Shown here piece by piece: positions 8,081 to 13,409 of a stretch of DNA of 64,000 bases; the first letter of the stretch is position 1; each line of letters begins with the position of its first letter. This stretch comes from Promethearchaeota archaeon (lineage in GTDB: Archaea; Asgardarchaeota; Lokiarchaeia; Sigyniarchaeales; SOKP01). The notes under the pieces were generated by a model. The model had not been told where the DNA came from, did no database searches, and saw only the letters and a list, made by a program, of their open reading frames with translations. Where the stretch lies: the NCBI GenBank assembly GCA_016839555.1, contig JAEOUA010000003.1, forward strand, positions 416,001 to 480,000, read 5' to 3'. The position numbers and the translations under genes were made by a program.

Positions 8081-8233
8081 TTAATGATAAGAAACGAGTT
8101 CTTTCATTTTTCCGTTTTCTTTAAGCTCTAAATCAACCTCTACTCTATAAGGATCGATATACCATATATAATCGTCTAATTCTACGATTTGTATTGGTTC
8201 ATCATCAACATATACAATGAAAGAATCTATCAT
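8081..8233 (-). CDS. Small acidic protein (50 aa), not in ORF track
   Basis: MIDSFIVYVDDEPIQIVELDDYIWYIDPYRVEVDLELKENGKMKELVSYH; AGGTG SD-like element upstream. Confidence 0.65.
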   Translation of the reverse strand: MIDSFIVYVDDEPIQIVELDDYIWYIDPYRVEVDLELKENGKMKELVSYH

Positions 8234-8259
8234 CTAAAATCAGCACCTTTATTTTTTTT

Positions 8260-8356
8260 AAAAAAAAGAAGGAGATGCTTTATTAATACCCCTTCTTTTC
8301 GAACTCCGCCGATACTTTGGTGACTAATTGCCTCCTTATATCTTTTTTGAGCTCAA
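8260..8356 (-). ncRNA. Putative structured leader or small RNA (two hairpins plus U8 tract)
   Basis: GC-rich island; hairpin 8299-8356 with several G-U pairs that work only on the minus strand; hairpin AAGAAGGGG/CUCCUUCUU running into a U8 tract. Confidence 0.5.
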
Positions 8357-8564
8357 TTAATCAATATTTATTTTTTTATTTAATCTTTTATTAAATAAAT
8401 TATAAATTTTTCAAAGGATTAGTTTAAATTTGTAAACCTTAACAAGAAAAAATCCTAAAATTTAAAGATATTTAAAAATCAATCATATAACAACTTTTTT
8501 ATAGATTTAAAATAATATTAATAATATTAAAAAGACTTAAAATAAAAAAATAAAAGGGAATAAA

Positions 8565-8930
8565 TTGGCAACAAATTGTAGATGCTATATGATTTTCTTT
8601 GTTTGGATAATTGCATTAGTTGCATTAGCTAATATTATTAATACGAAATATTCTACTACCACAGAATATATTATTGCTGGTGTAATAACTCTTCCAATAC
8701 TTTTCATTGAACCAATAATACGTTTTATAATAAAAAAAGGAGCTAATTTTCAGCAATCAAATGTTCGAAAAGAAGAAGAGGAGGCATATGAAGAAATTTT
8801 AAAAAGAAGTCTGAATGGATCCAATATAAAAGGTGAATCTGATTTTATTCTTTGCCCCAATTGTGGAGAAAAAAATATTAAAGCAGCAGATTTTTGTAAA
8901 GCTTGTGGAAAAGATTTAAGAAAACTCTAA
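8565..8930 (+). CDS. Membrane protein with C-terminal zinc ribbon
   Basis: 2 TM helices; CPNCG...FCKACGKDL. Confidence 0.75.
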   Translation: MATNCRCYMIFFVWIIALVALANIINTKYSTTTEYIIAGVITLPILFIEPIIRFIIKKGANFQQSNVRKEEEEAYEEILKRSLNGSNIKGESDFILCPNCGEKNIKAADFCKACGKDLRKL

Positions 8931-9018
8931 AATTTATTTTAAATACTAAAATATTTTTATTTTTTTCATTCAAAAATAAAAAAATGAAGAGGGAGTAAAT
9001 ATTAACCCAAATTTTTTT

Positions 9019-9519
9019 GTGTCTATAAACGCTTCAGACTTGAAAAAAATAATTCCTTTAGGACAAGATATTATTTATAGTACTTTAATGAAAGGAAAAA
9101 AAGTCAATCCTTATGATAAAAAAAATTATTATAGCTTTTATACTCATATATTATGTACACCAAAAGGTATTGCTTGGAAATTTACTGATTGGAAAAATGA
9201 TGAGATAAATTTTTTTACCAACTGGATAGATATTCCCGCACTTAAACGCAAGTTTATTAAGCTTAACAGATACATAAATTTAAAATTATTTCAACTCGAA
9301 AAAGAAATTAGTCATATTTTTCATAGGCGTACTTATCATTTCCTATTATCAATCTTACCCCATGCAATTAATTATGCTAATTTTGAACTTGAGAATCTTC
9401 CTAAGGATCAAGATCGCAAGAGGAGGAAAAAACTAAAAAAATTAAAAAACTTTATTTATAAATCTTCAAAATTATTTGAGAAAATAGAAAAGATAGCACT
9501 AAATAAAGGTTATATTTAA
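9019..9519 (+). CDS. Hypothetical basic protein, possible PH-like fold; paralog of 10351-10800
   Basis: Shares P-x-G-x-x-I-x-YSTL, H-h-L-x-T and ILP...LEN-P with the 10351-10800 protein. Confidence 0.7.
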   Translation: MSINASDLKKIIPLGQDIIYSTLMKGKKVNPYDKKNYYSFYTHILCTPKGIAWKFTDWKNDEINFFTNWIDIPALKRKFIKLNRYINLKLFQLEKEISHIFHRRTYHFLLSILPHAINYANFELENLPKDQDRKRRKKLKKLKNFIYKSSKLFEKIEKIALNKGYI

Positions 9520-9578
9520 ATTTTATAAGATTATATTTTATAATATTAATATAAATTAGACAAAAAAAAGTATTTAAA

Positions 9579-10268
9579 ATGAGTATTGATAATTTACAAC
9601 CAAAAGATGTTTTCAAATTTGAATGTTTAAAATGTGGAGCTCCAGCAACAACATATTTCAAACATGTTGAACAAAAATCGAGAATGTTCTTTACATCTAA
9701 ATATGTCTCAGAAAAAAAATTTTTAAGATCATTAAGAGTTCCCGTTTGTTCCAATTGCGATTCAGATCTTAAAACTTGGACTAATAAATATTCAACAACA
9801 AGATCTTCCTATGTAGATGTTATTTGCGAGTTTGTTCTTGGAGTTGGTATTGGGGTTGTTTTGCTATTAATCAGAGATTTTTTTCCCCAAGATCTGAGAT
9901 GGATATCTATCTTGGTGCCAACGCTTTTATTTTTTTTAGTGGGAATCGGTATTATCTATAAGATTTATAAATCAGGAGTAATAAGGAAGAAACCAAATAG
10001 TCCTTTTAGGTATATTGATTTTAGATTAAATAAGCCTTATGTTAGACCAGGTGGTAAAGGCTCATGGATTAAATACACAGATTGGCTTAAAAAAACAGGA
10101 GAAATAGATATTAGCATAGTGGAACAAGCACAATTAGAAAGAGAAAAAAAAGAATTTGAATTGGAACACGATATTAATGTTTTCTATTGTCCAAATTGCG
10201 GAGCAAAATATAATATGGGAACTGATTTTTGTCCAAATTGTGGAAAAGATTTAAGACCATTATATTAA
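9579..10268 (+). CDS. Membrane protein with N-terminal Cys pairs and C-terminal zinc ribbon
   Basis: CLKC, CSNC, 2 TM helices, CPNCG...FCPNCGKDL. Confidence 0.8.
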   Translation: MSIDNLQPKDVFKFECLKCGAPATTYFKHVEQKSRMFFTSKYVSEKKFLRSLRVPVCSNCDSDLKTWTNKYSTTRSSYVDVICEFVLGVGIGVVLLLIRDFFPQDLRWISILVPTLLFFLVGIGIIYKIYKSGVIRKKPNSPFRYIDFRLNKPYVRPGGKGSWIKYTDWLKKTGEIDISIVEQAQLEREKKEFELEHDINVFYCPNCGAKYNMGTDFCPNCGKDLRPLY

Positions 10269-10350
10269 AATTAGTAAAAATAAAAAAAATTTTTTATTTT
10301 TTCTTGAGTTATTAATTTATTGATTTATTTCATTTTTTTAGTTCTAGGAA

Positions 10351-10800
10351 TTATGGTTGTTTATCTAAAGTGGATTTAAATTCATTTATTTTTTTATTTA
10401 TTTTTTTTACTTTTCTCTTTTTTAAATCAGGATTATTTTCAAGTTTTTGTTCCAAACTAGTTATTAAAATAGGTAATATTGTTTTTGGAAATTGACTTGC
10501 TCGTTTTTGAAAATCCTCCTCTGATTCATATTCTCTTGCTCTTTTTAGTTTAAATTTATATGCTGGACCTATCACTCGAAATTCATCTTTTTTTACCTTA
10601 CTGATTGTGTTATAACCAAAAAACATAGGTTTACTGCGCCCGAAGGATTTTCTCTCTTCAAATACTATATAATTATCGGTAAAAAGAACATGAGAATTAT
10701 ATTCTATACGTCCAACACGTTTACCCTTAGAATAAAATTGTGAAATTCTACATAATGTGCTATATTTAATATTTTCTCCTTCTGGAACGGTTTTAGTCAA
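10351..10800 (-). CDS. Hypothetical basic protein, possible PH-like fold; paralog of 9019-9519
   Basis: Similarity to the paralog extends upstream to about 10821 (VPINFSEL vs VSINASDL). Confidence 0.7.
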   Translation of the reverse strand: MTKTVPEGENIKYSTLCRISQFYSKGKRVGRIEYNSHVLFTDNYIVFEERKSFGRSKPMFFGYNTISKVKKDEFRVIGPAYKFKLKRAREYESEEDFQKRASQFPKTILPILITSLEQKLENNPDLKKRKVKKINKKINEFKSTLDKQP

Positions 10801-11018: not shown

Positions 11019-13409
11019 TTATTCATTAGTTGAATGATTATTTTTATAACTAAATCTACTAATTTTATAAATTTCCTGCGCTATTTTTCTTCCAATATTT
11101 TCTACTTTCATTAAATCTCCAATATCTGAATTAAAAATTTTTTGAAGAGTTTTCATTTCTTTCAGTAAGTTTTTTGCTCGTAAAGTATTAACTCCCGGCA
11201 CACCTGAAATAATGTATTCTAATAAATATGATAATTCAATTGGGGCTTTTTTAAACCTAGATTTTACGGGTTTTTTATATTCAGATTGTTCCCTTTTAGC
11301 CAATTGATATAAAAATTTGGCGGATTCATTTACATCGGAAGTTCTATAAACATTTACTCCTAAATCCAATATTATAGAAGTGATCGCTCCATATAGAGCA
11401 TTTTCACTTATGTTTGTATTTAAAAAAGGATTTTCCTCTAAAATTAGTATTGGTCTTTCAAAATTTTTAGTTAAGTCAATTAATTCTTTAAATAAACGTC
11501 CATCTTTAATGGAATTAGTAAAATCTTGGGAACTTTTTCTTTCTATTCCCACTCGTTCTGAGACTATATAATCTGCTACTTCAAGTTGCTCTAATTGGAT
11601 ATTAACTCCCATTAATGATAATTTTCTCACTACGGGAGATGCTGTCTCTCTATTATCACATAATATAGAGATTTTCTGTGCACCATTAATATCTTTACTT
11701 TCTTCATGATTATGTGAGGATTCTTCAATAGAAACTTTGCTGATTTTCTTATTATCCGATTGCTTAGAATTTTGGGGTTGATCACCTTTTTGTTTATTTA
11801 TGAAACTCAAGAGATCCTTTTGCTCCTTTGACTCCATTTTATTTTCTGATTTTTTCATTCTTTTTAAGGTTTGACGCATATTCGATTCTTTATTTTTTTC
11901 AGCCCAATAATATCCCTCATCTCTGGTTCCTTTTGCCATTAATATGTAAATTTTTCCCTCGTTTTTTCTTCCTGTTCTGCCTCTTCTCTGGATTGATCGG
12001 ATCGCACTTGGAACAACATCATAAAATATTACTAAATTACATTCTGCTATGTCTAAACCCTCCTCCGCTACGCTCGTACCCACTAGCGTATTAAATGTAC
12101 CATTTTTGAATTCCTCTAAAATCTCAATCTGTTTTTTTTGAGTTAACCCTTTGTCGGAACCTTTATTTGCTTGTCCAATGAATTTATGAGCTCTTATTTT
12201 AGAATTATTTTTTATAATATTTACAATATTGTTCACAGAATCCCTATAATGAGCAAACACTAAGACTCTGGAGTCTTGATTTTCTTGAAATTGATTCGTT
12301 AAAATTGCTTCTAATTTGTCAATTTTTGGATGTATAATTCCTTGTGATTGAATTTTTTGGATTAAATTTATAAGTTTTCTGATATCTGAATCTTTAAATA
12401 ATTCCTTCAATGACTTGTTTGCTTTATTTTTTTTTATTTTGTCTATATTTTTGTCAATATAATCCTTCAGCGCGTTTATACCTTGAGTTTCTATTAATTC
12501 CATCATATGAGAAAGTCTAATCGAATTAGCTTGCAATTTCTTAGCATAGAAAAGATTATATTTTTCATCATCAGAAGGAGCAGAGGCAATTTTTCGATTA
12601 ATGATTTGATTTAGTTTTAACAAATCCCTTCTCGTTACATTATTAATATCATAAGAATTAAGGAGATCCATCTTTTTTAGATGCATGTAATGCTGTTTAA
12701 GTTTTTCTTGCAAGATTTTCAATATTTCCGAAAACTCATTTGGTAATTCTATTTTAATCCAATTCTGATCTACATTATGGATGTATGGTTTAACATCAAG
12801 ATCCTTTTCGGTTCTTATCTCAATATGATTAATATATAAATTCTGCTTGATTTCGTTAATCTTTTCCTCGGTGGACCCTGGACTGGCTGTTAATCCTAGA
12901 ATTTGAGGATGTTTAGAATTTCTTATATATTTTTTCGCGATAAAGCAATATGCATAATCACCTATAGCTCGATGACATTCATCAAAAATAATTAGCGATA
13001 CATCGCTTAATGAATATTGATTTGATATAATATCGTTTTGGAGCACTTGGGGAGTCATAAACGCAATTTTTAGATCCTTCCAAATTTCTTTTCTTACATC
13101 TGGTGATATAGTTCCCGTTATTGATTGCAATGCCCTCGATTCTAATAAAATTGATTCCTTGAAGGAGTTATAATGTTGATTTACTAATGGTTTCGTGGGA
13201 GCAAGAAAAATTACTCGTGAATCAGGATATTCCGTAAGTCTATGAACCGCCATCATTAGACCGATAATTGTTTTCCCTAAACCTGTTGGAATAACTACTA
13301 AAGAATTATGATTTAAACAATTAATAAAAATTGTTTCTTGATAAGAGCGTCTCACTATTAAATTCTCTTGAATTAAAGGATGGGAAAGAAATTCATCTTC
13401 AGATGCCAT
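11019..13409 (-). CDS. hef: Hef helicase/nuclease (FANCM-like SF2 helicase plus ERCC4 nuclease and HhH)
   Basis: PTGLGKT, DECH, LTASPG, QRRGRTGR; nuclease DNRE and ERKSSQD; PIP-like QKDLLSFI in the linker. Confidence 0.95.
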   Translation of the reverse strand: MASEDEFLSHPLIQENLIVRRSYQETIFINCLNHNSLVVIPTGLGKTIIGLMMAVHRLTEYPDSRVIFLAPTKPLVNQHYNSFKESILLESRALQSITGTISPDVRKEIWKDLKIAFMTPQVLQNDIISNQYSLSDVSLIIFDECHRAIGDYAYCFIAKKYIRNSKHPQILGLTASPGSTEEKINEIKQNLYINHIEIRTEKDLDVKPYIHNVDQNWIKIELPNEFSEILKILQEKLKQHYMHLKKMDLLNSYDINNVTRRDLLKLNQIINRKIASAPSDDEKYNLFYAKKLQANSIRLSHMMELIETQGINALKDYIDKNIDKIKKNKANKSLKELFKDSDIRKLINLIQKIQSQGIIHPKIDKLEAILTNQFQENQDSRVLVFAHYRDSVNNIVNIIKNNSKIRAHKFIGQANKGSDKGLTQKKQIEILEEFKNGTFNTLVGTSVAEEGLDIAECNLVIFYDVVPSAIRSIQRRGRTGRKNEGKIYILMAKGTRDEGYYWAEKNKESNMRQTLKRMKKSENKMESKEQKDLLSFINKQKGDQPQNSKQSDNKKISKVSIEESSHNHEESKDINGAQKISILCDNRETASPVVRKLSLMGVNIQLEQLEVADYIVSERVGIERKSSQDFTNSIKDGRLFKELIDLTKNFERPILILEENPFLNTNISENALYGAITSIILDLGVNVYRTSDVNESAKFLYQLAKREQSEYKKPVKSRFKKAPIELSYLLEYIISGVPGVNTLRAKNLLKEMKTLQKIFNSDIGDLMKVENIGRKIAQEIYKISRFSYKNNHSTNE

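Follow-up and report, generated by a model that had tools for sequence, protein, structure and literature searches.

The window, a stretch of 64,000 nucleotides, carries on its minus strand a gene for a Hef nuclease, a small unannotated ORF and, between them, a compact island with a G+C fraction of 0.37-0.42 across 8260-8349, against 0.08-0.23 in the flanking spacers. This GC-rich island in AT-rich DNA had been singled out in the initial annotation as two minus-strand hairpins followed by U8, AGGUG, an ATG and a 50-aa ORF. All of these elements are in place, and the minimum free energy (MFE) fold reproduces both hairpins. The features of the locus, including a predicted promoter, are as follows:

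8081-8233, minus strand: unannotated acidic ORF of 50 aa with its ATG at 8233, a neighbouring orphan gene outside the RNA.
8248-8244, minus strand: AGGUG, a Shine-Dalgarno (SD) sequence before the ORF.
8260-8267, minus strand: U8 run, where the transcript likely ends; in every copy hairpin 2 is followed by a T-rich run.
8263-8300, minus strand: hairpin 2, terminator-like and backed by covariation (core AAGAAGGGG/CUCCUUCUU, 8297-8266); its 5' strand is rich in purines, its 3' strand in C and U.
8301-8354, minus strand: hairpin 1 of the MFE fold (8299-8356 with the flanking U-G and U-A pairs). Tier P1 is GAGCUC/GAGUUC, or UUGAGCUC/GAGUUCGA when named from 8356 to 8299; P2 is GAUAU/GUAUC; P3 is GG-A-GGC/GUC-A-CC, closed by the loop AAUUA. 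It holds an SD-like GGAGG and the near-invariant 3' strand GUCACC-AAAGUAUC-GGYG-GAGUUC.
8355-8376, minus strand: AU-rich 5' leader of about 22 nt between the putative start and P1, with a mean majority fraction of 0.64.
8399-8406, minus strand: TATA box TTTATAAT, part of an extended conserved block TTTATAATYTATTTA that reaches 8392.
8422-8437, minus strand: palindrome GTTTACAAATTTAAAC in the promoter of the small RNA (sRNA), a candidate site for a regulator to bind.
About 11040-13400, minus strand: Hef.

The MFE fold of 8360-8234 on the minus strand consists of exactly hairpins 1 and 2, at -27.9 kcal/mol. Dinucleotide shuffles of the same region average -19.6 kcal/mol with a standard deviation of 3.0; the native sequence thus lies at a z-score of -2.75, and 2 of 200 shuffles fold as well. 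The plus strand takes up a different fold, with a z-score of -1.16. The structure is therefore strand-specific, as had been proposed from its G-U pairs: these are numerous in the homologues too and, since their complements would be A-C mismatches, fix the strand as minus. That the element is more than a chance fold follows from its relatives, which keep it with compensatory changes.

We refer to the window genome as G000, to related genomes as G001, G002 and so on, and to two metagenome contigs as L091 and L093. A DNA search recovered the RNA in four congeners, G005 and three more. The covariance model R1 finds it in 8 of 81 genomes of the family: six of seven in genus g1, the window genome included (five of the six other congeners sampled), and the single genome of each of g7 and g12. 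The one g1 genome that lacks it is only 61% complete. A pattern scan adds two metagenome lineages, which brings the total to 12 distinct copies, with one tandem pair in G001 and one in G012 (L054 1329-1445 and 1501-1617; L055 1232-1344 and 1501-1612). The two G001 copies have identical terminator hairpins and differ in the upper part of hairpin 1 (CACC vs CGCC).

Covariance models applied to some 110 further genomes in the family and order return no credible copy, a model of hairpin 1 alone returns no credible match from 40 genomes, and the region behind Hef in 18 genomes from 10 other genera, searched with filters off, holds no diverged copy (best E-value 0.3). Weak covariance-model matches in G014, G047, G013 and G023 were rejected, as the fold was missing, the DNA was coding or synteny was lacking. 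The RNA is confined to three genera of one Promethearchaeia/Lokiarchaeia family, plus the two metagenome lineages. In G017 a syntenic degenerate copy (L056 1501-1621), with a mismatch in P1, no P3 and neither TATA box nor palindrome, is probably a decaying gene. Contig C12 of G005 bears a short hairpin (L114 1501-1547; E-value 0.035 with model R3) with a 3' strand, AAUAUUGGUGGAGUUUAA, similar to the conserved one in hairpin 1; it could be a relic or a coincidence.

Folded singly, the 11 strong copies all adopt the architecture of the window copy, each as its MFE structure and also as its centroid: a P1 of 6 bp, a junction, P2, an A-rich internal loop, P3 and a loop of 5-6 nt, then hairpin 2. 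The junction between P1 and P2 is open in the window copy and paired (AUC/GGU, CC/GG) in other copies. Across the alignment of 12 copies the paired share of cells is 85.3%, which falls to 46-54% when the partners are slid along each other. The initial annotation had suggested looking for covariation among homologues; the comparison reveals a conserved fold with two-sided, compensatory changes in 16 of 30 pairs, where shuffles give 6.0 +/- 1.8 and none of 500 reaches as high, although these statistics overstate the support because the sequences are close kin, spread over three genera with perhaps five or six lineages that count as independent. Even so, the evidence points clearly one way.

Eleven of the 16 compensatory pairs lie in hairpin 2 (11 of its 14 pairs, with 91.7% of its cells paired) and two in P1. 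Hairpin 1 by itself (alignment A7) is 86.7% paired, against 22-45% when slid, with compensatory changes in five of 16 pairs. All three tiers provide examples. In P1, GAACUC/GAGUUC becomes GAACUU/AAGUUC in G004; in P2, GAUAU/GUAUC is replaced by AUAAU/AUUAU in G012b and by CGG/CCG in G001; in P3, CACC changes to CGCC, facing GGCG or GGUG.

Conservation peaks in the 3' strand of hairpin 1, where the majority fraction is 0.86-0.91, and the GAGG core of the GGAGGYG box in its 5' strand is invariant. The rest of that 5' strand, the leader and both terminal loops are variable (0.39-0.73), the 5' side and the leader spanning 0.39-0.64. With all terminal loops and the leader varying, the aligned copies contain no conserved unpaired seed. 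Compared with the synonymous sites of the adjoining 50-aa ORF, whose dS is 1.7, the RNA is far better conserved. We also considered a coding reading of hairpin 1, in one frame of which the C/U and U/A differences look synonymous. It was rejected because no canonical start codon opens the conserved frame and a UGA stands directly upstream in G006 and G002.

The RNA comes with a predicted promoter of its own. The TATA box begins 30 nt upstream of position 1 of the covariance model in nine of 10 copies, a spacing of the order typical of archaeal promoters, and the block TTTATAAT(C/T)TATTTA is common to all strong copies. About 15 nt further upstream, at a fixed distance, stands an inverted repeat of the type GTTAA-N5-TTAAC in G005, in both G012 copies, in the first G001 copy and in G006 (alignment A4; L049, L054, L055). 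Archaeal TATA promoters with an upstream operator have a geometry like the one before the RNA. As a marker of a regulon the palindrome is not informative, with 47 loose matches in the genome. From this arrangement we infer a transcription start near 8376, about 22 nt before P1; the U-run around 8260 is the putative transcript end. Archaea use an oligo-U tract as their termination signal (PMC8716108).

Several observations establish this as a gene-like unit. In the window genome the genes upstream of the RNA lie on the other strand, so the RNA needs its own promoter. Each member of the tandem pairs in G001 and G012 comes with a separate palindrome, TATA box, RNA and terminator, so that what was duplicated is a complete gene. 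A count of terminator-like hairpins in this DNA shows no enrichment (6 found vs 8.2 expected); hence hairpin 2 is specific to the RNA and not the usual gene ending of the genome. At sequence level, then, the unit has the hallmarks of an sRNA gene: a predicted promoter, a 3' hairpin with a T-run in all copies, and a covarying non-coding structure.

The RNA always lies in the neighbourhood of Hef, a protein with ERCC4 and HhH domains, at 150-250 nt from it in the relatives. The window genome alone has an insertion between Hef and the RNA, a 2.6-kb block (8565-10800) made up of two membrane zinc-ribbon genes and two PH-like paralogues. Downstream, four contexts occur over 10 loci, which hold 11 copies. 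The 50-aa ORF follows the RNA in two of them, G000 and G005, and is absent from the other eight; a 102-aa membrane-protein gene follows in L091; a Ras-like GTPase gene in G004 and, further off, in G017; and in G006, G002, L093, G001 and G012 the next gene, of about 105 aa, is convergent, with its end 35-50 nt away from the 3' end of the RNA. The L091 locus reads Hef, RNA, the 102-aa gene (77% identical to that of the window genome) and GlpA, which the window genome has as well, with 144 nt between the RNA and the 102-aa gene and no trace of the ORF.

We take the ancestral arrangement of the RNA-bearing loci to be Hef, RNA, Ras-like GTPase; in the window genome the GTPase gene has been relocated 185 kb away. 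Of 18 genomes that represent other genera of the family, 12 have the GTPase gene directly behind Hef with no RNA between them, which marks the RNA gene as having arisen within a subclade. Where the RNA is lacking in a genus (L071, L078, L073, L067), a AAAGATTTTTAACCAA-like box stands before the TATA box of the GTPase promoter and resembles the one that precedes the sRNA; the promoter of the sRNA may have originated from the GTPase promoter or be co-regulated with it.

The 50-aa ORF has a history of its own. Its protein has one relative among 60 related genomes, in G005 of the same genus, with 62-64% identity, a dN/dS of 0.17 and the dS given above; no homologue beyond G005 was found in 5.8 billion clusters or 1.84 billion representatives, and a Pfam search gave no match. 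Its AF2 model is a meander of five beta strands (pLDDT 83), for which a fold search yields no PDB match at E <= 0.001. By these sequence measures the ORF appears to be a real orphan micro-protein gene under purifying selection. At the G005 locus the RNA upstream of it is much better conserved than the ORF itself, and neither the spacer nor AGGUG is conserved: from the U-run to the ATG there are 26 nt in G000 vs about 60 nt in G005. Both copies of the ORF have TATA-like A/T blocks some 25-35 nt ahead of their ATG and may thus have separate promoters, though in DNA so AT-rich this is weak evidence. In G000, the 26-nt gap with AGGUG inside means that read-through from the sRNA could still feed the ORF.

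On the Hef tree G000 and G005 are sisters (100/99), while the deep branches accommodate a single origin of the RNA or several. Together with the L091 locus this sisterhood indicates that a single sub-lineage gained or retained the ORF, and that L091 lost it while keeping the RNA. The ORF thus appears, from these comparisons, to be a separate and younger gene, an optional neighbour of the RNA and not its regulated target.

The initial annotation had left the choice between a new cis-regulatory leader and a stand-alone sRNA. The second half of that proposal agrees with the TATA box, the palindrome, the covarying 3' hairpin with its U-run and the duplication of the whole unit; the first half finds no support in the comparison of loci. 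As a leader, the element would be an attenuator or riboswitch in which hairpin 1 senses a signal, hairpin 2 and U8 terminate, and read-through expresses the ORF. The layout in the window invites this reading, with a hairpin, a terminator-like hairpin, U8, AGGUG and the ATG all in order and the last within 26 nt; G005 has the same order, and the GGAGG segment can pair with the 3' strand of hairpin 2. Yet a leader is expected to precede the same gene across species, and here the downstream gene varies, with the ORF at two of 10 loci. L091 even keeps the RNA and the genes that lie beyond the ORF in the window genome, without the ORF itself. The different spacers and the lack of conservation of AGGUG point the same way, as do, weakly, the TATA-like blocks before both ORFs, compatible with promoters of their own. 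The mutually exclusive fold that had been suggested, AAGGAG with CUCCUU, is real as a complementarity and can form in all copies, but at -8.0 kcal/mol it is weaker than the native hairpin 2 at -12.6 kcal/mol and has no covariation of its own; the deficit is 4-11 kcal/mol throughout, except in the degenerate G017 copy (3 kcal/mol). Besides, hairpin-dependent attenuation is not known as an established mechanism in archaea. We consider a leader of the ORF very improbable.

Two further readings dispense with the ORF. In one, the RNA is a conditional terminator, or orphan riboswitch, in which hairpin 1 toggles between P2/P3 and a pairing of CACC with the downstream GGYG, tuning read-through into sense genes or, antisense, across the convergent ~105-aa gene that lies so close to its 3' end at five loci. 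The CACC:GGYG pairing fits the alignment as well as P3 does: it is 85% paired over the 12 copies, shows A-U, G-C and G-U at its second pair and was the one picked by RNAalifold. Moreover, in 10 of 11 copies the 5' GGAGGYG and the 3' GGYG have the same base at Y. The two GGYG segments are, however, identical in sequence, which makes compatibility with both pairings automatic and no demonstration of switching. P2/P3 with hairpin 2 is the MFE and the centroid structure of every strong copy, the downstream context is inconsistent, and a Hef nuclease and a Ras-like GTPase suggest no class of ligand; a switch of this kind is accordingly a distinctly unlikely one, if less so than the leader. In the other reading the element is not an RNA at all, and either marks a DNA-level site of protein binding or recombination or is a chance fold in a slightly GC-richer spacer. 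In favour of this, the element occurs at every locus in the neighbourhood of Hef. Nevertheless, the compensatory changes include many G-U pairs, which read from the opposite strand are A-C mismatches, and the fold is significant on one strand only. A TATA box precedes and a T-run follows it in the same orientation in all strong copies, and its conservation far exceeds that of the synonymous sites of the ORF. We give hardly any credence to a DNA element or a chance fold.

We therefore turn to a stand-alone gene as the reading to develop. The element is probably an independent, lineage-restricted gene for a structured sRNA of about 118 nt (115-120) that would act in trans; both the trans action and the kind of partner are deduced from the pattern of conservation. 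Transcription would proceed from the TATA-box promoter, preceded by the palindromic operator-like box, and start about 22 nt before hairpin 1. The transcript would fold into the three-tier hairpin 1 and the stable hairpin 2 and end in the U-run. Hairpin 2 with its U-tail would serve both as terminator and as a protective, stabilising 3' end, possibly bound by an Sm-like protein. The functional surface would be hairpin 1, whose 3' strand and 5'-strand GGAGG are near constant while the other 5' bases change so as to keep pairing.

How such an RNA would work is a more tentative matter. The missing single-stranded seed makes recognition by a protein, or by structure, likelier than seed pairing. 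An RNA that functions in trans as part of an RNP, protein-bound or recognised through its structure, is to us a plausible candidate that falls short of an even bet. A classical antisense regulator that pairs through a seed is doubtful, and a search for an extended antisense match to the RNA elsewhere in the genome found none.

The GGAGG(UGA) box suggests yet another role. As a Shine-Dalgarno sequence it is fully complementary to GGAUCACCUCC, the 3' end of 16S rRNA in the genus, and within hairpin 1 it pairs with the anti-SD-like (G)UCACC; no start codon follows it in any aligned copy. The 16S gene of the window assembly (G000 contig C5 603237-603905, L100) is truncated by a contig end, with positions of about 4-658 present, and the 3' end was taken from congeners. 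Hairpin 1 might accordingly mimic an SD:anti-SD helix, with CACC pairing either the 5' GGAGGYG or the 3' GGYG, and act as a trans switch responsive to a ligand, to a protein or to the small ribosomal subunit. We consider such a mimic unlikely; if it existed, it would be the first class of riboregulators specific to Asgard archaea.

Asgard archaea are the closest prokaryotic relatives of eukaryotes, and their regulatory and structural RNAs are almost uncharted: in the literature we found no described sRNA of this group. The present candidate is modest in scope, occurring in three genera, and it is well delimited, with a predicted promoter, a covarying structure and, in an archaeon, a bacterial-looking 3' end of hairpin and U-run. 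It offers a concrete target for Northern blots, RNA-seq and pull-downs in cultured relatives, and its operator-like box could lead to its regulator. It also carries a caution. In a single genome, the succession of hairpin, terminator, SD and ORF resembled a riboswitch; comparison showed the ORF to be an add-on.

Among known RNA classes we find no direct relative. Rfam 15, searched at gathering and at permissive thresholds (E up to 5-10) with the window and six homologous loci, matches no family; this agrees with the initial opinion that the RNA is not a fluoride riboswitch. The best near-miss, PyrG_leader, scores 20.1 bits against a gathering score of 65, and a snoRNA near-miss, which is on the wrong strand, reaches 19 bits of the 50 required. 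A box H/ACA RNA was rejected: P1 is followed by GA, AA or UA and purines with no constant ANA, tandem G-A pairs are missing, and the internal loop, 6/4 nt in the window, shrinks to 1-2 nt in G001 and G006. For box C/D, the 12 copies conserve neither the C box RUGAUGA nor the D box CUGA. Readings as a K-turn, BHB, loop E or tRNA T-arm likewise failed against the alignment. A type I or type III toxin-antitoxin pair was set aside as well, the ORF being acidic, modelled as all-beta and soluble, and absent from most loci, and the RNA having no internal tandem repeats.

Some partial likenesses are instructive. Riboswitch and attenuator leaders share with the window the hairpin, the terminator-like hairpin, the U-run and the ORF, but here the downstream gene is not conserved and the PyrG_leader score stays far below its threshold. 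Hairpins that sequester an SD, as in RNA thermometers and the platforms of translational riboswitches, pair GGAGG(UGA) with an anti-SD-like (G)UCACC in the same way; in our RNA the SD-like box has no start codon after it, and a terminator follows instead of a coding region. CsrB and RsmZ, like this RNA, have purine-rich GGA/GGAGG motifs, a compact fold and conservation in structured motifs instead of a seed. In contrast, our RNA has only two such motifs per molecule, both largely paired, and CsrA is not known from archaea, so the likeness is functional speculation.

Closer parallels are found among sRNAs proper. With trans-acting bacterial sRNAs of the Hfq/ProQ type, which end in a Rho-independent terminator, the RNA shares a stand-alone gene of about 100 nt with a promoter, a 5' stem-loop, a 3' GC-rich hairpin with a U-tail, a narrow range and tandem duplication in some genomes; it differs in its archaeal host and in having no conserved single-stranded seed. 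In archaea termination needs only a U-tract, and Sm-like proteins stand in place of Hfq. The archaeal sRNAs of Methanosarcina mazei, Haloferax volcanii and Sulfolobus are also intergenic, independently transcribed (here a prediction) and end in a U-run, although the comparisons revealed no sequence or Rfam relation between them and this RNA, which is limited to three genera. Altogether, the RNA is a new, narrowly distributed sRNA candidate that belongs to a known kind of gene.
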